Notes: a model not told the origin generated them from the sequence alone. A DNA stretch of 6,892 nucleotides from a virus (IMGVR_UViG_2695420617_000001:1-6892); one strand, 5' to 3'; counted from the stretch's first letter, positions 1 through 6,892 are shown. Made by a program: numbers and translations.

Positions 1-1461
1 ATTAGTAAGTGTCTTCGCCAGGAAGTCGAAAGAATCCTCGCGAGGCAATAACTTCAGGTCGTACTCACTCATTTGCTGATCAGAAAGCGGGGTATCGTAA
101 GTAGCAATGCCGTAGCGTGCATATTCATAATACGGGTCACCTTCATCAGGGCGCGGCAGAATTGCTTTGTTACCTTCAGGTATTGCGCCAGGGGCCGCCG
201 GACGCATTTGCAGGGCATATCGATATTCACCTACAGAGACTTCTGGTTCAGGCGAAGAGCTACCGGTATCCTCCGCTGGTTCAGGTTCGACGTTTTCCGG
301 TTTATGTTCTTCTGGTTGGACCAGGTATTCCGATACATTACCCGCTTTATAGGCTTTAAACAGCTTGCCGATCGCATCTGCCATGTCCACACCCTGTATG
401 GATTTAGCCTTGATCATGTACACGCTGCCATCCGAATCGGTTAACTGGATATACCCTTCGCCGTCCTCAATGAATTGCTTCATTGATGCACCATTACTGA
501 GCGTCACTTCCCCGTTCATATGCATACGATTTTTGATACTGGCAAGGCGATCCGTCATCGCGCGAGAGTGTCCACCAGTCGTCCCCGCAGGAGCAATGGT
601 ATCGCGCCCACCAGTGCGATTGAGCTGATCAATCTCCGTCTGCAAACGCTCATTCTCTTCATAAAGAGAATCCGCTTCCGATGCAACAGCGTTAATTTTC
701 TGCTCCAGATCTACCTTCTGCCCTTCTACCGCTGCCACCTGATCCACGAGGTCGCTCATGGCATCCTCTTTCTGGTCACTATCAGCCTGTAGTTGGGTTA
801 TTTCATCAACAAGGGCTTTTTTCTTCTTCTGCGCACGCTGAAATTTTGCCGAGTTTTTCTCTGCAAGGTTGGCAAGTTTCATGGTGACCTGCGCCAGCGT
901 CATATCACGTCCACTCATCGGAGCAACGGTGTGAGTAACGTCTTTTTTATTCAGTAAGAACTGGAAAGCAACCAGCGTATCGCTATTGGTGATCCGGTTT
1001 TCCGCTGTCGGGCTATGAAACAGAATGCTGATAGTCTGACCATCACTGAGCGGAATAATGGCTGGCAGGACCGGCAGCCCGTTAACGTTACGTGCCCGGC
1101 CAATTTCAGCACCGCCGATCGCGCGCGCGCCGCTCTGGGCCACATCCCCCGTTTTATCACTCCCCGCAGAGATTCCGGTACCATTCAGCTTCTGGTTCAA
1201 TGCCCGGACAAATGCCTGCATGGTCCGGTGTAACTGCAAACGAGTAGAACTAATCGCCTCCAGTAAATCCGTAGCACACCAGTGGATCGGCGTGTCATAG
1301 AAGAACGTAGCCTCGATTTCCTCCAGGGTGTTGGATTCCGTCATCAGATAGCGGTCCTCACCGGCCATTAATGCGCGATATTCATCATCAGTCACTGGCG
1401 GGGGAAGCACGTCAAGCCCAGGCTTGATCGTCACCCCTTTATTGATATTGAACTGTTCCAT
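1..1461 (-). CDS. Large structural/antirestriction-type protein, DarA-like (P1 dar operon); partial, C-terminal part lies beyond the window start
   Basis: Hand translation of the minus strand gives one uninterrupted frame from ATG (complement of 1459-1461) to position 1, about 487 codons, beginning MEQFNINKGVTIKPGLDVLPPPVTDDEYRALMAGEDRY. An AGGAA Shine-Dalgarno sits 7 nt upstream. It is missing from the ORF track only because no stop occurs inside the window. The many short plus-strand ORFs at 73-1300 are antisense shadows. It shares the motif TL..V....A.KNSAKFQ followed by a coiled-coil with the upstream 203-aa ORF. The DarA name rests on recalled P1 gene order and the Hdf paralogy, not on a search. 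Confidence 0.6.
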   Translation of the reverse strand, partial: MEQFNINKGVTIKPGLDVLPPPVTDDEYRALMAGEDRYLMTESNTLEEIEATFFYDTPIHWCATDLLEAISSTRLQLHRTMQAFVRALNQKLNGTGISAGSDKTGDVAQSGARAIGGAEIGRARNVNGLPVLPAIIPLSDGQTISILFHSPTAENRITNSDTLVAFQFLLNKKDVTHTVAPMSGRDMTLAQVTMKLANLAEKNSAKFQRAQKKKKALVDEITQLQADSDQKEDAMSDLVDQVAAVEGQKVDLEQKINAVASEADSLYEENERLQTEIDQLNRTGGRDTIAPAGTTGGHSRAMTDRLASIKNRMHMNGEVTLSNGASMKQFIEDGEGYIQLTDSDGSVYMIKAKSIQGVDMADAIGKLFKAYKAGNVSEYLVQPEEHKPENVEPEPAEDTGSSSPEPEVSVGEYRYALQMRPAAPGAIPEGNKAILPRPDEGDPYYEYARYGIATYDTPLSDQQMSEYDLKLLPREDSFDFLAKTLTN

Positions 1462-1462
1462 G

Positions 1463-2065
1463 TTAATTTCCTGCTTTCAGTTGCTTAAGACGGCGTTTGA
1501 GTTCGCCATTTCGGGCCTTTTCGTTATTGAGTCGGCCGGTATCCTTATCCAGCTTCGCCCGCAAATCAGTGATCTGCTGTTGATGGAAAGACACCGAGTT
1601 CTGCGCTGATTTATAAGCGGCAACCACCTGAGCATTCCGCTGTTTTGCCTCTTGCAGGCGCTGAAAGTTGGATTTTACTGCCGGTTTCTTGTCTACCGGA
1701 TTGGCAACACGTTTCGCTTTGGCGATCAGTGATTTCTGGAATTTTGCGGAGTTTTTGCGGGCCGCTTGCCCCATGACGGTACCAAGCGTCTTGATATCCG
1801 GCGACTGAGCGTTAGGAATAGCTTTTCCATTCAGCCTCACAGACGATATATCGCCAGTATCGTTTACCTGTATGGCAAGAATTTGTCCGTCGTTAAGAAC
1901 CAGCTTTGCGGTTTTAACTTTAACGCCATCTTTCGTTGTTGCGCGGTTGCTGGAGTCAACCTCAATTACCGTAACACCGGTTTTATTGATCGCCGCGATA
2001 AGGGATTTCAGCCCCTTTTCATTAACCTGGTCAAAATCGACCGTTGCATACTTATTTTTCGTCAT
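1463..2065 (-). CDS. Hdf-like protein (homolog of DarA fragment), paralogous to the downstream large ORF
   Basis: Track ORF 1463..2074 (-). I prefer the second ATG (2063-2065), which has AGGA 8 nt upstream; the first ATG at 2072-2074 has no SD. Stop TAA at 1463-1465 is 1 nt from the next gene's ATG (TAAcATG). Lysine-rich C-terminal coiled-coil. Shares KNSAKFQ and flanking residues with the large ORF at 1-1461. Confidence 0.6.
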   Translation of the reverse strand: MTKNKYATVDFDQVNEKGLKSLIAAINKTGVTVIEVDSSNRATTKDGVKVKTAKLVLNDGQILAIQVNDTGDISSVRLNGKAIPNAQSPDIKTLGTVMGQAARKNSAKFQKSLIAKAKRVANPVDKKPAVKSNFQRLQEAKQRNAQVVAAYKSAQNSVSFHQQQITDLRAKLDKDTGRLNNEKARNGELKRRLKQLKAGN

Positions 2066-2495
2066 CTGACACATCCTGTGCGAGATTTATTACGTAACTT
2101 CTGCGGATTTGCTGAGTAACAGGGAAAATCCGATACAACGGGTTAATGAACGAGTCGCCATGCGTAACCATGACGTTGAAATGCCACAGCCGTTCTCCTT
2201 TACCCATATATTCAGTGGGTATGTACAACCATTCACTGTTTTCGCCCTGTTCAGCCGACGTCAAACAACGTTGTTCGCCTTCAATCACTGTCGTTGGCTT
2301 CTGAACATCGCGGATCCAATATCTGACCGTTGCGCCGCGCAAAAACGGGAATTTAGACCGGTATTTGAACGGCACCCGGATGAAACCCGGTTTAATTTCC
2401 ACATCACCAAGTTCTAAATGCGTGATGTCCTTGCGTTTTAGCAAATAGCGATCGGCTAAGGCTAACGCAAGAGCGCATACACCCCAGCCAATCAT
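2052..2495 (-). CDS. Putative antiholin/lysis regulator (LydB-like), N-terminal signal-anchor
   Basis: 147-aa ORF with hydrophobic N-terminus MIGWGVCALALALA. Its ATG overlaps the stop of the upstream holin-like gene in an ATGA arrangement (2492-2495), indicating translational coupling. Assignment is by position after a holin and recalled P1 lydA-lydB order; no search done. Confidence 0.45.
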   Translation of the reverse strand: MIGWGVCALALALADRYLLKRKDITHLELGDVEIKPGFIRVPFKYRSKFPFLRGATVRYWIRDVQKPTTVIEGEQRCLTSAEQGENSEWLYIPTEYMGKGERLWHFNVMVTHGDSFINPLYRIFPVTQQIRRSYVINLAQDVSDDEK

Positions 2496-2821
2496 TTCCC
2501 ACCTCCCTTTTTCACCAAACTTGTAAGAACATTCAGAATGCTATCGATATTCACTCGTTTCATCCCTGAAATCACCTCATGACCGTTATTGCTGGCTATC
2601 GTTACCATTAAGTACGTAATTGATAACTCCCAGCCCTCGTGTTGCCCCAATAGGTACGCCACCGCGCCAGCTGTCACTGCAACAAAGATCTCCGTAACCA
2701 ATCCCAACAAATTGCCAGACTGGCGACCGTCTCGGACATCCATCAGGAACGTGCCTATCCCACCAATTACTGAAAGCAGGAGCGCAATAGCAACTGGAGC
2801 TAATTCCTGTGTGTCAAGCAC
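2492..2821 (-). CDS. Holin-like membrane protein (LydA-like)
   Basis: 109-aa ORF with GTG start (complement of 2819-2821) and a strong AGGAGG SD 6 nt upstream. Two to three predicted transmembrane segments (LAPVAIALLLSVIGGIGTFL, LLGLVTEIFVAVTAGAVAYLL) and a short charged C-terminal tail (KKGGGK), as is typical of holins. Confidence 0.6.
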   Translation of the reverse strand: MLDTQELAPVAIALLLSVIGGIGTFLMDVRDGRQSGNLLGLVTEIFVAVTAGAVAYLLGQHEGWELSITYLMVTIASNNGHEVISGMKRVNIDSILNVLTSLVKKGGGK

Positions 2822-2895
2822 AAGTTCCCTCCTACGTTGTCAGGAGGTAATGGTATGCAAAGTAACTTCTCAACCGGTTATGTTGCATAAGAGAC

Positions 2896-3159
2896 TTACC
2901 TATTCAACCGACTTTTGGAACCTTCAATAATAAGCCTGCTATTGGCGCTGAAAATAAGAACCATGCAGCTCTGAAGGCTTTCATTCATGTCCTTATATTC
3001 CGCGAGATACATGCCAATAAAGCCAGCAAGTACGGCGGAAATACATTCGGCCAGCAATTTCTTGCATGAGGACTCGTAACGGTTTTCACATAGCCCACTC
3101 AAATACGAATACACCCCACCAAGAAGGGATAACATCACGATATGTACATAAAATGTCAT
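2896..3159 (-). CDS. Small hypothetical membrane protein (87 aa), first gene of the minus-strand operon
   Basis: ORF with ATG at 3157-3159 and a weak AGGT SD. Two hydrophobic stretches (VHIVMLSLLGGVYSYLSGL, LLAECISAVLAGFIGMYLAEY). Same strand as the lysis/dar genes. Function unknown. Confidence 0.4.
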   Translation of the reverse strand: MTFYVHIVMLSLLGGVYSYLSGLCENRYESSCKKLLAECISAVLAGFIGMYLAEYKDMNESLQSCMVLIFSANSRLIIEGSKSRLNR

Positions 3160-3286
3160 TTTTTACCTATACAACAGTAAGTTGAACAACATTTGAGAAC
3201 GGTATGCACTTTGTGATTTCCACACACACTGGTTTTGTTAATTAAAACCTGTAGCTTGCAATAAATAACGATAGTGGGCAGAAAAT

Positions 3287-3472
3287 ATGCTAATAGGCTA
3301 TGTACGCATATAGACAAATGAACAAAACACAGCTATGCAGTGAAAAGCACTTGAAAGCGCAGGATGTGAGCTAATTTTTGCGAATAAGGCGAGCAGCAAA
3401 AAGGCTGGGCACCCTAGTTTAAAAAAGGTTCTGCGTATGCTTTCCAGAGGTGATACCCTAGTCTCGGACTAG
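3287..3472 (+). pseudogene. Decayed 5' remnant of a Cin/Gin-type serine invertase gene (two in-frame stops, 3' part deleted)
   Basis: Plus-strand translation from ATG 3287: MLIGYVRI*TNEQNTAMQ*KALESAGCELIFANKASSKKAGHPSLKKVLRMLSRGDTLV, then unrelated sequence. This aligns over about 59 codons with the intact invertase in this window (MQIGYIRVSTNDQNTDLQRNALNCAGCELIFEDKISGTKSARPGLKKLLRTLSEGDTLV), with TAG at codon 9 and TGA at codon 19. Homology ends at 3463, exactly at the left arm of a palindrome. Confidence 0.75.
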
Positions 3473-3474
3473 GG
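3456..3474. repeat. Perfect palindrome CCCTAGTC-tcg-GACTAGGG at the invertase-remnant breakpoint
   Basis: Arms 3456-3463 and 3467-3474 are exact reverse complements with a 3-nt spacer. The left arm is the last recognisable invertase codons (ccc tag tc = ..T L V). No flanking T-run on either strand, so it is not a typical intrinsic terminator. Confidence 0.7.
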
Positions 3475-3594
3475 ACAACATTTCGAGGACAGTTTTCATT
3501 AGCGGTCAGCAGGCGCTAGATACATCGAATTGATGTGCCGCGCGATAAATGTACCTATTCTATCAAGATAAATTACACCGACGCGGCATTAGAA

Positions 3595-4167
3595 TTACAG
3601 CTCAGATTGAGTTTGGCGCTTCTCTACAGGATGATAACGATAAATCGTCGATACACCGATATCGTAAATAATTGCCAACTGTTTCCTGCTGTAGCCATTT
3701 TCGATCAACCTCGCTATTTGCTCATGTTGTTCTTTTGTCAACTTCGGGCGACGTCCGCCAATGCGTCCCTGTTCGCGTGCAGCTGCCAGTCCGGCCAGTG
3801 TTCTCTCAACAATTAATTCACGTTCCATTTCTGCTAAAGCACCCATGACATGAAAAAAGAAACGCCCCATGGGTGTTGATGTGTCAATACTGTCTGTCAG
3901 ACTACGGAAATTAACACCTTTTTCCCGCAACTCCTCTATAAGCGTGATAAGGTGTTTCATACTTCTGCCAAGCCTATCCAGCTTCCAGACAACCAGCGTA
4001 TCTCCTTCTGATAACGTTCTGAGCAGCTTTTTCAAGCCTGGTCTGGCTGACTTTGTTCCGCTTATTTTATCTTCAAAAATCAGTTCACATCCTGCGCAGT
4101 TCAGTGCATTTCTTTGTAAATCTGTGTTTTGGTCATTTGTTGACACACGAATGTAGCCAATTTGCAT
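3595..4167 (-). CDS. Serine DNA invertase (site-specific recombinase, Pin/Min/Cin/Gin/Hin family)
   Basis: 190 aa from ATG (complement of 4165-4167), with GAGG SD about 9 nt upstream; the track's TTG at 4176 is probably not the start. Hallmark N-terminus MQIGYIRVSTNDQ with the catalytic serine context, then DTLVVWKLDRLGRS, MGRFFFHVMGALAEMERELIVERT, GRIGGRRPKL and a C-terminal helix-turn-helix (GYSRKQLAIIYDIGVSTIYR). Closest by memory to the Pin/Min subfamily. Confidence 0.93.
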   Translation of the reverse strand: MQIGYIRVSTNDQNTDLQRNALNCAGCELIFEDKISGTKSARPGLKKLLRTLSEGDTLVVWKLDRLGRSMKHLITLIEELREKGVNFRSLTDSIDTSTPMGRFFFHVMGALAEMERELIVERTLAGLAAAREQGRIGGRRPKLTKEQHEQIARLIENGYSRKQLAIIYDIGVSTIYRYHPVEKRQTQSEL

Positions 4168-4221
4168 GAAAAACAACCTCTTTGTTTAGTTAAAAATACA
4201 TCGTTGGTATAGGTAGGGATT

Positions 4222-4247
4222 AAGACTAAAACGTTGGTTTGGGGGAA
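4222..4247 (+). other. Invertase crossover site 1 (26 bp: 12-bp half-sites flanking a 2-bp core), boundary site next to the invertase gene
   Basis: AAGACTAAAACG-TT-GGTTTGGGGGAA. The inner AAAACG/xx/GGTTT pattern matches hix/gix/cix-type sites (for example hixL TTCTTGAAAACC-AA-GGTTTTTGATAA). It lies about 55 bp upstream of the invertase start. Confidence 0.7.
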
Positions 4248-4706
4248 GGCTCAGCATTGCCTGTTGGCGTGCCTGTTCCGTGGCCCTCAGCCACTCCGCC
4301 AACGGGGTGGCTGAAATGCAATGGTGCAGCATTTTCTTCTGAAAAGTACCCAAATCTGGCAAAGGCTTACCCTACTAATAAATTGCCGGATCTACGGGGC
4401 GAATTTATTCGCGGCTGGGATGACGGGCGGGGGATTGACTCTGGCCGTAATTTATTATCTGCACAGAATGATGCAATTCAGAATATTGTTGGTTCTTTCG
4501 GGCGTACTCAGCTTTTTAGAGATGTACTTAGTTCAGGGCCATTTAGTCAACATGGTCAAGTATTATCTACAGGCCTAAAGGAAACGGAAATTATTGAGGG
4601 TTATGGCTCTTATAACTGGACATTCGACGCCTCTCGCTCAGTTCGTACAGCATCTGAAACCCGTCCCCGTAATATTGCATTTAATTACATCGTAAGGGCG
4701 GCATAA
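4236..4706 (+). CDS. Tail fibre C-terminal cassette A (start-codon-less gene segment, silent in this configuration)
   Basis: Open frame from the right half of site 1 to TAA 4704-4706: GLGEGSALPVGVPVPWPSATPPTGWLKCNGAAFSSEKYPNLAKAYPTNKLPDLRGEFIRGWDDGRG, a unique core, then ETRPRNIAFNYIVRAA. The collar-like LPDLRGEFIRGWDDGRG motif is typical of phage tail fibres. No ATG or RBS; the track's M is a TTG. Confidence 0.8.
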   Translation, partial: GLGEGSALPVGVPVPWPSATPPTGWLKCNGAAFSSEKYPNLAKAYPTNKLPDLRGEFIRGWDDGRGIDSGRNLLSAQNDAIQNIVGSFGRTQLFRDVLSSGPFSQHGQVLSTGLKETEIIEGYGSYNWTFDASRSVRTASETRPRNIAFNYIVRAA

Positions 4707-4725
4707 AAACGTTGGTTTAGGGGAA
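4700..4725 (+). other. Invertase crossover site 2
   Basis: GGCATAAAAACG-TT-GGTTTAGGGGAA, same orientation as site 1. The left half-site contains the TAA stop of cassette A. Confidence 0.75.
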
Positions 4726-5175
4726 GGCTCGGCGCTGCCCGTTGGCGTGCCTGTTCCGTGGCCCTCCGCCACACCACCAACGGGGTGGCTGAAATGTAAC
4801 GGAGCAGCATTTTCTTCTGAAAAGTACCCAAATCTGGCAAAGGTTTACCCAACGTTAAAATTACCTGATTTACGCGGTGAGTTTATCCGTGGTTGGGATG
4901 ATGGGCGAGGTGTGGATGCGGGAAGGGTCATCTTAAGCATACAGGGGTGGTTAACAGGAAGTCATTATCATAATATTCGGTCATGGGACGCGTGGGATAA
5001 CACGGTATTGGTGCCAAATGACAGAGGGGGGGATAGTCTGTTGTCGACAGATAACGCCGTCCAAGAAGGAGCGATTAATGGTAAATTTACCAGTCAATAC
5101 AGAACGGAGTTATCTGGGGGGAATGAAACCCGCCCACGTAACATTGCCTTCAATTATATTGTGAGAGCAGCATAA
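4714..5175 (+). CDS. Tail fibre C-terminal cassette B (start-codon-less), translationally coupled to tfa
   Basis: The frame is open from site 2 (GLGEGSALPVGVPVPWPSATPPTGWLKCNG...); the track begins at an internal GTG at 4747. Unique core WLTGSHYHNIRSWDAWDNTVLVPNDRGGDSLLSTDNAVQEG. Ends ETRPRNIAFNYIVRAA with TAA overlapping the tfa ATG (TAATG at 5173-5177). Confidence 0.8.
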   Translation, partial: GLGEGSALPVGVPVPWPSATPPTGWLKCNGAAFSSEKYPNLAKVYPTLKLPDLRGEFIRGWDDGRGVDAGRVILSIQGWLTGSHYHNIRSWDAWDNTVLVPNDRGGDSLLSTDNAVQEGAINGKFTSQYRTELSGGNETRPRNIAFNYIVRAA

Positions 5176-5786
5176 TGGATAATGCGATATTAAATAGCGA
5201 ACTTATAGCCATACAGGCAGGAAACATTATCGTTTATAACTATGATGGTGGTAATCGGGAATATATTTCTGCATCAACTGAATATCTTGCTGTTGGCGTT
5301 GGTATTCCGGCAAATTCTTGTTTGGATGCTCCAGGCTCACATAAAGCAGGTTATGCGATTCTCCGTTCAGAGGATTTAAGTTCATGGGAGTATGTGCCAG
5401 ATCATCGTGGCGAAACTGTCTATAGCATTGACACTGGGAATCCCGAAGAAATCACGGTGTTGGGTGACTATCCGGAAAATACAACCACTATCGCCCCGCT
5501 AACACCATACGACAAATGGGATGGAGAGAAATGGGTGGTTGATACTGAGGCTCAACATAGTGCAGCTGTAGAGGCAGCAGAAACAAAACGTCAGTCATTG
5601 ATTGATACTGCGATGGATTCCATTAGTCTGATTCAGTTGAAATTACGGGCTGGACGGAAGTTGACGCAGGCAGAAACCACGCAGCTTAACTCCGTGCTAG
5701 ATTATATAGACGAGCTGAACGCGATGGATTTAACCACGGCACCAGATCTCAACTGGCCTGAAAAACAACTTTCTACAGCCAGTTGA
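5175..5786 (+). CDS. tfa: Tail fibre assembly protein (Tfa; lambda Tfa / Mu U family chaperone)
   Basis: 203 aa. Recalled lambda Tfa motifs match: IPANS..D.AP, (E/P)DHRG(K/E)TVY, Y(Q/D)KW(N/D)G..WV.DTEA and C-terminal T(S/T)APD(I/L)(E/N)WP. TAATG overlap with cassette B. Confidence 0.9.
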   Translation: MDNAILNSELIAIQAGNIIVYNYDGGNREYISASTEYLAVGVGIPANSCLDAPGSHKAGYAILRSEDLSSWEYVPDHRGETVYSIDTGNPEEITVLGDYPENTTTIAPLTPYDKWDGEKWVVDTEAQHSAAVEAAETKRQSLIDTAMDSISLIQLKLRAGRKLTQAETTQLNSVLDYIDELNAMDLTTAPDLNWPEKQLSTAS

Positions 5787-5791
5787 TATAA

Positions 5792-6298
5792 TTAATCCGC
5801 CCTCACAATATAATTAAATGCAATATTACGAGGGCGGGTTTCTGTACCTACATTTCCACTAATTTCACCATAACGTTTAACACTACGAGAGCTAATAGCT
5901 CGTAGTGAGGAAGGCACCTTATGACCGGGTTCGTCCGTTTTAACTATTCCCCCGTCACCGTATGTAGCTAGTATTCCTGGATTTACGCCTTCCCGTGCAC
6001 TTCCTGCGGCGAGTCCGTCCCCTGTCCATAATTCCATATAGTGTGCATGGTCCAAAATTGTGTGTGGCTGCCAATTAAGCAAAGCGCGGCCAGCATCCAC
6101 CCCGCGCCCATCATCCCAGCCGCGAATAAATTCTCCCCGTAAATCCGGTAATTTATTGGTGGGGTAGGCTTTTGCCAGTTTGGGATACATTTCAGAAGAA
6201 AATGCTGCACCATTGCATTTCAGCCAGCCCGTTGGTGGTGTTTCTAAGGGCCACGGAACGGGCACGCCAACGGGCAATGCTGAGCCTTCCCCCAAACC
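5792..6298 (-). CDS. Tail fibre C-terminal cassette C (start-codon-less, inverted orientation)
   Basis: Minus-strand frame from site 3 to stop (complement of 5792-5794): GEGSALPVGVPVPWPLETPPTGWLKCNGAAFSSEMYPKLAKAYPTNKLPDLRGEFIRGWDDGRG, a unique core, then ETRPRNIAFNYIVRAD. Its stop is 5 bp from the tfa stop (convergent). Confidence 0.8.
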   Translation of the reverse strand, partial: GLGEGSALPVGVPVPWPLETPPTGWLKCNGAAFSSEMYPKLAKAYPTNKLPDLRGEFIRGWDDGRGVDAGRALLNWQPHTILDHAHYMELWTGDGLAAGSAREGVNPGILATYGDGGIVKTDEPGHKVPSSLRAISSRSVKRYGEISGNVGTETRPRNIAFNYIVRAD

Positions 6299-6312
6299 AA
6301 CGTTTTTATGCC
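6287..6312 (-). other. Invertase crossover site 3 (inverted relative to sites 1 and 2)
   Basis: Plus strand TTCCCCCAAACC-AA-CGTTTTTATGCC, which is the reverse complement of GGCATAAAAACG-TT-GGTTTGGGGGAA. It contains the stop codon of cassette D. Confidence 0.75.
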
Positions 6313-6785
6313 GCCCTTACGATGTAATTAAATGCGATATTTCGTGGACGGGTTTCACTCCCGCCAGTATTACCAATACTCCCTCGAGAATGAAGTGTCG
6401 GTGATGGAATCAAATTCCCTCCTGTATTTGAGGCATCAAGCCCCCGTCCTTGTGTGTATGTTTTTTTGAAAATTGTCGCCAGCTCCCATTCATCTTTTGT
6501 GTCGTAACCATCATTGGCTACAACAATATGTCGGTGCTTTTCCAGCATTCCTGTCTGAATGCTCAATAAAGCACGTCCTGTATCAATGCCGCGTCCATCA
6601 TCCCAGCCACGAATAAACTCACCGCGTAAATCAGGTAATTTTAACGTTGGGTAAGCCTTTGCCAGATTTGGGTACTTTTCAGAAGAAAATGCTGCACCAT
6701 TGCATTTCAGCCAGCCTGTTGGCGGAGTGGCTGAAGGCCACGGAACAGGGACACCAACAGGTAATGCAGAGCCTTCTCCCAAACC
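6306..6785 (-). CDS. Tail fibre C-terminal cassette D (start-codon-less, inverted orientation)
   Basis: Minus-strand frame from site 4 to stop (complement of 6306-6308). Same conserved N-module (..AKAYPTLKLPDLRGEFIRGWDDGRG), unique core, then ETRPRNIAFNYIVRAA. Confidence 0.8.
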   Translation of the reverse strand, partial: GLGEGSALPVGVPVPWPSATPPTGWLKCNGAAFSSEKYPNLAKAYPTLKLPDLRGEFIRGWDDGRGIDTGRALLSIQTGMLEKHRHIVVANDGYDTKDEWELATIFKKTYTQGRGLDASNTGGNLIPSPTLHSRGSIGNTGGSETRPRNIAFNYIVRAA

Positions 6786-6799
6786 AACGTTTTTATGCC
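6774..6799 (-). other. Invertase crossover site 4 (inverted relative to sites 1 and 2)
   Basis: Plus strand TTCTCCCAAACC-AA-CGTTTTTATGCC. It contains the stop codon of the partial cassette E. Confidence 0.75.
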
Positions 6800-6803
6800 G
6801 CCC

Positions 6804-6892
6804 TTACGATATAATTAAACGCAATGTTACGAGGACGAATGGTTACATAATTAACCCCATCACCTCGTGAAGGCCCTGCAAATGAAAAACGG
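6804..6892 (-). CDS. Tail fibre C-terminal cassette E, 3' end only (continues beyond the window end)
   Basis: Minus-strand translation of 6892..6804 gives ..RFSFAGPSRGDGVNYVTIRPRNIAFNYIVRAA then stop (complement of 6804-6806). It has the shared C-terminal motif but a different preceding sequence, so it is a fifth distinct cassette. Confidence 0.65.

Follow-up and report, generated by a model that had tools for sequence, protein, structure and literature searches.

The window analyzed here, the whole 6,892-nt stretch of viral DNA, is, as judged from its sequence, a part of a P1-like phage-plasmid that carries the Min-type multiple DNA-inversion system of p15B, and its cassettes A-D are the swappable tips of the tail fiber. 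The best explanation for the mosaic structure of these cassettes, to which we assign a probability of roughly 85%, is that a Min invertible region is combined with split-collar flanks that are constrained by their fold, and that homology between these flanks gives rise to the mosaics.

The backbone genes darA-hdf-lydB-lydA-lydC are 95-99% identical to those of P1-like elements, and a cin remnant is found at the left boundary of the region; in the published view, Min took the place of a Cin-like system. The Min/Pin-type serine DNA invertase gene (3595..4167, minus strand; 190 aa) encodes a protein with the hallmark of the Din family, a small serine recombinase of ~190 aa in which a resolvase catalytic domain is followed by a C-terminal HTH. 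It is recognized by Pfam Resolvase (E 2e-51) and HTH_7 (E 3e-15) and by PHROG 125 'DNA invertase' (E 1e-98), with sub-threshold matches only from NCBIfam, and is identical to P1 Cin at 138 of 190 aligned positions. The gene shows 0 nt differences from that of pMCR_SCKP-LL83, the inversion region of which is reported to be 99% identical to p15B min (PMC5786510). It is because of the P1-like backbone and this shared invertase gene that we identify the system as Min, the link to p15B running through pMCR_SCKP-LL83. The p15B sequence has the accession X62121, and the Min multiple DNA-inversion system on this plasmid was reportedly described by Iida in 1990 and by Sandmeier, Iida and Arber in 1990-1992. 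In its 5' portion the invertase gene contains a stretch (4078..4149, minus strand) that shares 58 of 72 nt with the enhancer annotated at the corresponding place in P1 cin; this is a putative recombinational enhancer that, by homology to P1 cin, would be Fis-dependent. In a promoter and terminator scan of 3450-6892, promoter-like matches were rarer than in shuffled sequence (3 versus 6.1), and the promoter-like match CTGGCA-16-TAAAAT that is made by the 'TLK' block of cassettes B and D was rejected as being at chance level.

The window contains exactly four crossover sites, two per strand, where 0 are expected by chance. All four are 26 bp long, conform to xxxxxxAAAACG-TT-GGTTTrGGrGAA and include inverted orientations, and a crossover site begins every cassette. 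The site of cassette A (4222..4247, plus strand; AAGACTAAAACG TT GGTTTGGGGGAA) marks the outer limit of the invertible region, and the flank upstream of it contains stop codons and is therefore not the constant part of the gene. The site of cassette B (4700..4725, plus strand) overlaps the stop codon of A, that of cassette C is located at 6287..6312 (minus strand), and that of cassette D (6774..6799, minus strand) overlaps the stop codon of cassette E. The window thus goes beyond two sites, with four of them, and provides the tail-fiber gene with four complete alternative 3' cassettes and the 3' end of a fifth.

When the window is overlaid on the S. Typhi plasmid ph681355, positions 1-4922 are colinear with the plasmid (99.45% identity) and positions 4709-6820 are inverted (99.95%), the two sequences diverging at B's site and identity returning at the TT of 4712-4713. 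The window is an inversion isomer of ph681355 with its junction exactly at the central TT, and because the colinear and inverted alignments switch at this dinucleotide, inversion does occur at the crossover sites. In ph681355 cassettes A, C and D are co-oriented and cassette B, which is inverted, is fused to the constant tail-fiber part (..SVLNYLGLGEGS); complete relatives have 2-9 cassettes, one of which is linked to the constant part via TACCTTGG. An ISEcp1-blaCTX-M-15 unit is present in ph681355 at the position equivalent to window 6820/6821, an insertion that is absent from the window. In this system the serine invertase recombines the 26-bp sites at the central TT, which joins one cassette to the constant gene part, located past the right edge of the window. 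Each cassette is an alternative 3' end of the tail-fiber gene, with no start of its own.

Cassette A (4230-4706, plus strand; core family F2) comprises an N-terminal collar part (~4230-4466), a core (~4467-4655) that begins NDAIQNIVG, and a C-terminal strand (4656-4706). Cassette B (4708-5175, plus strand; F1) carries the 'PTLKLPDL' block shared with D, and its stop codon overlaps the start (ATAATG) of tfa (5175..5786, plus strand), the tail-fiber assembly chaperone gene identified by Pfam Caudo_TAP (E 3e-30) and PHROG 105. In those records that annotate a tfa it comes after the F1 cassette, and the spacing between F1 and the next cassette is constant across the other mapped loci. No specific NCBIfam family was found for the cassettes or tfa. 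Cassette D (6306-6791, minus strand; F0) has a core and C-terminus with 0 differences from the F0 cassettes of two related loci, L001 and L007, and an N-terminal part with 38 and 29 differences from them, respectively. Cassette E (6793-6892, minus strand; F8) is represented by its 3' end only, being cut by the window edge.

Cassette C (5792-6304, minus strand) has an F3 core and a foreign C-terminal tail (5792-5842, ending in IVRAD and a stop), which is of the type found on the tfa-adjacent F6 cassette of other plasmids. F6 cassettes have exactly the same last 48 nt and downstream flank, and all other F3 cassettes examined have a different ending (9 differences) with a crossover site after it. 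Cassette C is an F3/F6 hybrid with its junction outside any crossover site, the product of a deletion or a replacement. The hybrid tail is identical in the window and in ph681355, whose lineage has cassettes F2, F13, F9, F8, F0, F3 and F1 and lacks F6, F7 and F10. A search for secondary crossover-like sites inside the cassettes found none, which rules them out as a source of chimeras.

Cassettes A-D can be aligned without gaps over 79 codons, after which they part into cores of ~63, 60, 75 and 66 aa. The original prediction had described each cassette as a near-identical first ~130 nt, a collar-like segment, a unique core of 60-85 aa and a conserved C-terminus. The last of these is borne out, as all cassettes end in ETRPRNIAFNYIVRA(A/D), and the cores fall within the predicted size range at 60-75 aa, but they are not wholly unique, with those of B, C and D sharing a potentially metal-binding HxH start (HYH, HAH and HRH) that is absent in A. 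The description of the first segment as near-identical goes too far, as the first 138 nt are 85.5-94.2% identical. In the collar segment, A and B do differ at most synonymous positions (~13 of 15 synonymous sites in the LPDLRGEFIRGWDDGRG stretch); over cassette nt 139-201 (YPT..GRG) they are 74.6% identical, with pS 0.90 and pN 0.057. We considered whether this pS reflects selection against homology and rejected the idea, since with ~15 sites it is indistinguishable from saturation. The same segment pairs A with C (88.9%) and B with D (93.7%) as had been claimed, with zero non-synonymous changes in both pairs, and the proposed old divergence under protein-level constraint agrees with an omega of ~0-0.15 in the N-terminal part and with the assignment of the segment to the Pfam Collar domain.

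The boundary between the first and second segments is less simple than had been proposed. Nine quartet-informative sites, all within nt 148-231, group A with C and B with D, five (nt 33, 66, 69, 205 and 207) group A with D and B with C, and one groups A with B and C with D. Identity drops significantly from the first segment to the second in the pairs A/B (Fisher p=0.0035) and A/D (p=0.0005), no significant step is seen in A/C, B/C or C/D, and B and D are more alike in the second segment than in the first. Because the step is seen in some cassette pairs only, the boundary is not a fixed one; it is a pair-specific recombination breakpoint. Judged by the window alone, the mosaic is of marginal significance (max-chi2 permutation p=0.066); it becomes decisive only when related loci are added.

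The molecular basis for the conservation of the two flanks may lie in their fold. Pfam Collar (PF07484) matches aa 13-60 of all four cassettes with 55-57 bits (cut-off, 24), and phmmer aligns cassette aa 8-74 to T4 gp37 chain positions 27-93 (PDB 2XGF) and the cassette C-terminus to positions 220-242 of the same structure, and also to the gp12 C-terminus. The HAH of cassette C is aligned with HSH of gp37. The collar domain of gp37, D10, is made up of residues 811-881 plus 1010-1026, with D11 inserted in it (PMC6957217). We therefore suggest that the N-terminal 75-80 and the last 15-20 residues of each cassette probably form one split collar domain, and that the variable core would be a receptor-binding domain inserted in this collar, as D11 is in D10; a receptor function of the cores is thus likely. 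An AlphaFold2 model based on a 4-sequence alignment of the window cassettes was unusable (pLDDT 34.5), so that the split-domain claim rests on alignment to solved structures and on the literature. All 27 core families retain the same flanks, in which diversity is near zero at first and second codon positions versus 0.3-0.7 at the third. Because both flanks would build one collar domain, they would be fixed in protein while their synonymous sites drift.

The exchange between cassettes that had been predicted is supported by a comparison set of 130 cassettes and 27 core families from more than 80 related loci, many of which are draft viral contigs, with misphased SNPs in the 200-nt repeats possible for some. 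Haplotype blocks of the N-terminal 200 nt are shuffled among the 27 families, with an Rm of at least 19 in 195 nt, a PHI-type permutation p<0.001 and four-gamete incompatibility at 457 of 861 site pairs (53%). In 91 same-core pairs whose cores are no more than 1% diverged, pooling gives a divergence of 5.15% for the N flank, 17-fold that of the core (0.30%), and of 1.9% for the C flank. The last N-flank differences in these pairs are scattered over nt 42-234, and identical cores may have N flanks differing at up to 38 sites. Between the window and L001, the invertase genes of which show 0/573 differences, the cores have 0-3 differences and the N flanks 16-38 (Fisher p 7e-4 to 2e-11). Cassettes of one locus with different cores have an N-flank identity of 0.897, and cassettes of different lineages with the same core one of 0.845-0.883. 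These observations support cassette-to-cassette exchange of flanks.

Strong purifying selection on the N flank and C-terminus would by itself lead to a conserved/variable/conserved protein pattern, and the cassettes could in principle have diverged once, with uneven constraint or mutation rate along their length and no exchange. Such a history cannot, however, leave conserved flanks with 17 times the divergence of the cores in close pairs, nor can it produce the four-gamete incompatibilities; it is already refuted by these data, and we give it practically no credence. It is also very improbable that the mosaic results from misassembly or mispolishing of the ~200-nt repeats in an actively inverting population. 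These repeats are 85-94% identical and present in 4-9 copies per element, and drafts are frequent among the comparison contigs, but the window matches the independently assembled and complete ph681355 at 2111 of 2112 nt across B-tfa-C-D, all N blocks included. Many independent assemblies, complete plasmids among them, contain the same blocks, and both records have the same hybrid tail on C.

A more serious alternative, which we rate at somewhat below even odds, is that the mosaics come mainly from the import of cores from other phages via the conserved flanks, exchange within the element being minor. The same core families occur in elements with invertases that are only 84% identical, and in those elements all cassettes (F8, F9, F10 and F12) have a lineage-specific N block; N-flank identity tracks lineage about as much as it tracks the core, and the cassette complement varies by plasmid from 2 to 9. 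Against this, a single N block (F6-type) is carried by four cassettes of one plasmid, L086, and plasmids that are near-identical (invertase 0/573 differences) differ in the N block attached to a given core, both of which point to within-element events. Core import and within-element exchange are not mutually exclusive.

The pairing of A with C and B with D joins cassettes of opposite orientation in the window, and the original prediction had attached weight to this; however, as the orientations differ in ph681355, it is an accident of the sampled isomer and has no lasting meaning. Reciprocal crossovers between inverted cassettes, giving inversions independent of the invertase, are an unlikely main source of this pairing. 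Inverted cassettes do share perfect identity runs (65 nt for A/D, 42 and 40 nt for B/D, 37 nt for A/C), which are longer than the ~25-30 bp generally regarded as necessary for RecA-dependent recombination in E. coli, and the N-block types of F1 and F3 are opposite in the window and ph681355 relative to L001. The sole inversion difference that can be examined, that between the window and ph681355, nevertheless has its junction at the crossover TT, and a reciprocity test on N-block distance matrices of complete plasmids turned up several one-to-many patterns and not one clean reciprocal swap. The apparent swap of B and C with the F1 and F3 of L001 proved to be two shared block types, with no clean exchange. 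Invertase-independent inversion, for which inverted homology had been proposed as substrate, is plausible on account of the 37-65 nt runs; the inversion actually seen took place at the crossover dinucleotide. Block sharing looks mostly non-reciprocal and conversion-like, and neither recombination intermediates nor reciprocal products were observed among the sequences compared.

We favor flank homology as the source of the mosaics: because every cassette, here and in related phages, has the same two flanks, these would serve as homology for invertase-independent general recombination and gene conversion. Blocks of the N flank, and more rarely of the C flank, would move repeatedly between cassettes and leave pair-specific mosaics, in which A is like D early and, in the collar motif, A is like C and B like D. 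The same recombination could generate hybrid cassettes such as C and alter the cassette number. Both a RecA-type pathway and the ratio of conversion to crossover are what we infer here. That flank exchange is a promoted second layer of diversification rather than passive background recombination, for instance one stimulated by off-site action of the invertase or by a phage function such as P1 Ref, a RecA-dependent nuclease, seems quite improbable. One form of that view has flank turnover outpacing that of the cores by an order of magnitude, with new core/flank/chaperone combinations and copy-number variants arising at a selected rate; another has synonymous flank divergence tuned to set the exchange rate.

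The cassettes most likely determine the host range of P1-like phage-plasmids, elements that E. coli, Salmonella and Klebsiella commonly harbor and that are also carriers of resistance (blaCTX-M-15, mcr-1); 232 PLSDB records match the cassette region. Cassette sets differ between near-identical plasmids because the cores behave as portable modules between two recombining handles, and a practical rule for engineering or predicting tail-fiber specificity is to swap at the collar flanks. For annotation, 'phage tail protein' ORFs in such regions should be read as gene fragments, and an assembly captures one isomer only.

The Min-type system and the principle of tail-fiber mosaicism are both already known, and the established picture is unchanged. 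Like p15B Min, the locus has a P1-like IncY backbone, a Pin/Min-type serine invertase adjoining the invertible region and more than two crossover sites inside a tail-fiber gene with several 3' cassettes; it differs in the complement and order of its cassettes and in the F3/F6 hybrid C. The P1 Cin/C-segment, Mu Gin/G-segment and e14 Pin/P-region systems have an invertase of the same family, likewise switch the 3' end of a tail-fiber gene by inversion at 26-bp sites, and carry an enhancer within the 5' portion of the invertase gene (putative here). Those systems, however, have two sites and two ends with a chaperone gene for each, whereas the present locus has one tfa, at least four sites (counted in the window) and, in full elements, 7-9 cassettes; in comparison with P1 cin, the invertase gene is also on the opposite strand. 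In R64-type shufflons, too, a single adhesin gene has its alternative C-terminal segments shuffled by multiple inversions, but their enzyme, Rci, is a tyrosine recombinase that acts on asymmetric sfx sites, and it is the pilus adhesin pilV that is switched. As the enzyme here is a serine resolvase/invertase by Pfam, we rejected membership of the shufflons.

At the level of the protein, the closest parallel is the collar and receptor-binding architecture of the T4 gp37 tip (PDB 2XGF) and gp12: the two halves of gp37 D10 align with the N flank and with the C-terminal strand NIAFNYIVR, and the variable core stands where D11 is inserted, although the cores here are 60-75 aa long rather than ~128, are very diverse and, in A, lack HxH. 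Recombination at conserved motifs is said to swap adhesin specificity in T-even tail-fiber genes (Tetart et al. in 1998), and horizontal mosaicism has reportedly been described for the tail-fiber genes of P2, Mu, P1 and lambda (Haggard-Ljungquist et al. in 1992; Sandmeier in 1994). In those mosaics, as here, conserved segments around hypervariable receptor-binding parts are the recombination handles. In contrast to them, the partners here are cassettes of one invertible locus, and exchange therefore also homogenizes the flanks within each element and alters the number of cassettes.

The left 3.4 kb of the window is the darA-hdf-lydB-lydA-lydC block of P1-like phage-plasmids, with 95-99% identity to P1, P7, SJ46, RCS47 and hundreds of IncY/p0111 plasmids. 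P1 homology stops at 3463, the end of a cin remnant (3287-3463, plus strand; MLIGYVRI*TNEQNTAMQ*KALESAGCELIF...) that comprises the 5' part of a P1-type invertase gene with two in-frame stops and contains a vestige of the cin enhancer (3305-3376; 62/72 nt identical to P1). The remnant marks the left boundary where a Pin/Min-type module took the place of a Cin-type module. There follow a serine invertase of 190 aa (3595-4167, minus strand; Pfam Resolvase and HTH_7, PHROG 'DNA invertase'), the complete tail-fibre cassettes A (4230-4706) and B (4708-5175) and the tail-fibre assembly gene tfa (5175-5786), all three on the plus strand, and, on the minus strand, the complete cassettes C (5792-6304) and D (6306-6791) and the 3' end of a fifth, E (6793-6892). 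Every cassette starts at a copy of the crossover site AAAACG-TT-GGTTTrGGrGAAGG, of which the window has exactly four, two on each strand, where chance would give none; the internal sites each overlap the stop codon of the preceding cassette, and no cassette has a credible start of its own.

The window's best match is ph681355 (CP083412.1; PMC9837566), a phage-plasmid of S. Typhi. Positions 1-4922 are colinear with it, with 27 mismatches, 22 of which lie where window B faces a different cassette, and positions 4709-6820 align to its reverse complement with a single mismatch. One alignment gives way to the other precisely at the central TT of the crossover site that separates A and B, the very TT that in ph681355 links B with the constant tail-fibre part (...SVLNYLGLGEGS...). 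The two sequences are therefore separate inversion isomers of nearly the same element, and use of the crossover sites follows the pattern of the Hin/Gin/Cin/Pin/Min family. The order in ph681355 is A, F13, F9, E (F8) carrying ISEcp1-blaCTX-M-15, D, C, inverted tfa with B, and the constant part (F numbers denote core families; A, B, C and D have F2, F1, F3 and F0 cores). The original prediction had paired cassettes of opposite orientation, but A, C and D share one orientation in ph681355, so that this pairing depends on the isomer sampled and is not a property of the cassettes. The ISEcp1-blaCTX-M-15-wbuC unit (ph681355 7231-10190) interrupts E 30 nt ahead of its stop codon; at 6820/6821 of the window the cassette sequence runs on intact, and the window's source thus lacked the insertion at that point. 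The backbones differ by about 0.07%, and cassette A differs from its counterpart at 4241 and 4271 only, both no more than 42 nt from the crossover site; one falls in its right half-site (G/A, cassette nt 12). The two changes could represent a short conversion patch.

Pfam finds one Collar domain, at aa 13-60, in every cassette, so the two N-terminal segments that had been distinguished from the sequence belong to a single domain. In the T4 gp37 tip (2XGF), chain positions 27-93 are matched by cassette aa 8-74 and positions 220-242 by the cassette C-terminus (gp37 ends ...NIAFNYIVRLA); the short-tail-fibre chain 9CUY and gp12 give the same two-part match. In gp37, the receptor-binding domain D11 is inserted into D10, the collar fold common to gp12, which comprises residues 811-881 and 1010-1026 (PMC6957217). 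Taking residue 1026 as the last of the 242-residue chain, the alignments would cover 811-877 and 1004-1026, the two halves of D10. The conserved N flank and the C-terminal strand would then form one split domain, with the variable core as its inserted, receptor-facing part; this three-dimensional claim rests on homology, because structure prediction for the cassettes reached a pLDDT of only 34.5. Both flanks are kept in all 27 core families from related loci, and in the N flank codon positions 1 and 2 are almost invariant, with a third-position diversity of 0.3-0.7. At the core start, a few residues after the conserved Q79, an HxH motif occurs in B (4963-4971, HYH), C (6035-6043, HAH), D (6531-6539, HRH) and many further families and is absent from A and the 'GDAIRNI' families, which indicates a few structural classes of core rather than unrelated sequences. 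The motif of C aligns with that of T4 gp37, which binds metal ions.

A codon alignment of A-D from the crossover site (NVGLGEG...) has no gaps over 79 codons. The predicted segments are real, but 'near-identical' is too strong for the first, as nt 1-138 (counted from the site) show pairwise identities of 85.5-94.2%, with A/D the closest pair. In the second, nt 139-201 (YPTxKLPDLRGEFIRGWDDGRG), the proposed divergence of A from B at most synonymous positions is real and reaches saturation: identity is 74.6%, with 13.2/14.7 synonymous sites changed (pS 0.90, pN 0.057). The pairings of A with C (88.9%) and B with D (93.7%) in this segment likewise hold, with zero amino-acid changes in either pair. 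Nine informative sites, all within nt 148-231, support AC|BD, five (nt 33, 66, 69, 205 and 207) support AD|BC and one supports AB|CD; in the last 51 nt A once more groups with D, at 5 differences compared with 12 between A and B. The step in identity between the segments is significant for A/B (p=0.0035) and A/D (p=0.0005) only, and is reversed in B/D, which are more alike in the second segment. With the window's own cassettes alone, a breakpoint test was marginal (max-chi2 permutation p=0.066). The 'PTLKLPDL' block of B and D also gives rise to a promoter-like match, CTGGCA-16-TAAAAT (4834-4861, plus; 6638-6665, minus), which is probably due to chance, as such matches are fewer across the whole region than in shuffled sequence.

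The segmental pattern becomes clear among related loci. From 80 viral-contig loci found via the invertase and nine complete plasmid regions we collected 130 distinct cassettes in the 27 core families. Their first 213 nt consist of few haplotype blocks in many combinations, common to several core families; the 'TLK' block linking B and D is found on F3, F6, F9 and F10 cassettes too, and is missing from other F0 and some F1 cassettes. In p15B-type elements, 457/861 site pairs fail the four-gamete test, a minimum of 19 recombination events is required in 195 nt, and site incompatibility grows with distance (permutation p<0.001). The strongest result comes from 91 same-core cassette pairs with a core divergence of no more than 1%: the pooled figures are 0.30% in the core, 5.15% in the 'conserved' N flank and 1.9% in the C-terminal 54 nt, the reverse of the usual expectation, and the N flank thus turns over about 17 times faster than the core. 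Against the F0 cassette of pMCR_SCKP-LL83, window D has no differences in core and C-terminus and 38 in the N flank; in the same plasmid comparison the core and N-flank differences are 0 and 29 for C, 3 and 27 for B, and 1 and 16 for A. The 3'-most N-flank differences in same-core pairs are scattered from nt 42 to nt 234, so an exchange can stop at any point of the shared sequence and is not tied to a site. When the ph681355 cassettes are painted with pMCR_SCKP-LL83 cassettes as donors, each N flank resolves into two to four donor segments. N-flank identity is 0.897 between different cores of one locus and 0.845-0.883 between same cores in different element lineages, and in a lineage whose invertase is 84% identical, every core has that lineage's own N block. 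This is concerted evolution at work in the flanks.

No crossover-like motif was found inside the cassettes, one N block occurs on four cassettes of plasmid L086 (NZ_CP063505.1), and no clean reciprocal swap of N blocks was found, which together favour homologous recombination, mostly conversion-like, that would operate both within one element and with cassettes of other phages. Inverted window cassettes share perfect identity runs of 65 nt (A/D), 42 nt (B/D) and 37 nt (A/C), and runs of this length are enough for RecA-type recombination. Invertase-independent inversions, as originally suggested, are possible; the single inversion open to inspection, between the window and ph681355, is site-specific.

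Cassette C is a hybrid: its core is F3, whereas the closing 48 nt (…IVRAD*) and the flank downstream show no difference from the F6 cassette that adjoins tfa in six other plasmids. All other F3 cassettes examined have a different end (9 differences) followed by a crossover site. As ph681355 has no F6 cassette, the simplest history is a deletion or replacement for which one breakpoint lies where the conserved C-terminal segment begins, a rearrangement not dependent on the crossover sites. That the mosaic is an assembly artefact is unlikely, since two independent records agree at 2111/2112 nt over B-tfa-C-D, the hybrid tail of C included. Cassette number among complete plasmids ranges from 2 to 9, and some carry the same cassette twice, sometimes inverted: F3 in L086 (14222, plus; 16840, minus), F5 and F2 in L005, and F0 in L017. 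One tfa gene accompanies the 2-9 cassettes and comes after F1 (cassette B) in every record annotating it; it can face the opposite way when another cassette joins the constant part, as in pGD27-62, which expresses F6 and has a convergent tfa. With the C-terminus in common, a single Tfa might serve every cassette.

Tail-fibre genes have long been recognized as mosaics built by recombination at conserved motifs (Sandmeier; Haggard-Ljungquist; Tetart and Krisch), and the Min-type multiple inversion system of plasmid p15B was reportedly described in 1990-92. Both the kind of system and the principle of flank recombination are thus already known; the contribution here is the quantitative picture of flank turnover and the specific hybrid cassette. 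The window's invertase gene has 0/573 nt differences from that of pMCR_SCKP-LL83, whose inversion region is reported to be 99% identical to min of p15B (PMC5786510), and the system is a Min-type multiple inversion system as described for p15B. It resembles the R64 shufflon in its way of working, but its invertase is a serine enzyme, which places it outside the R64 shufflon family.
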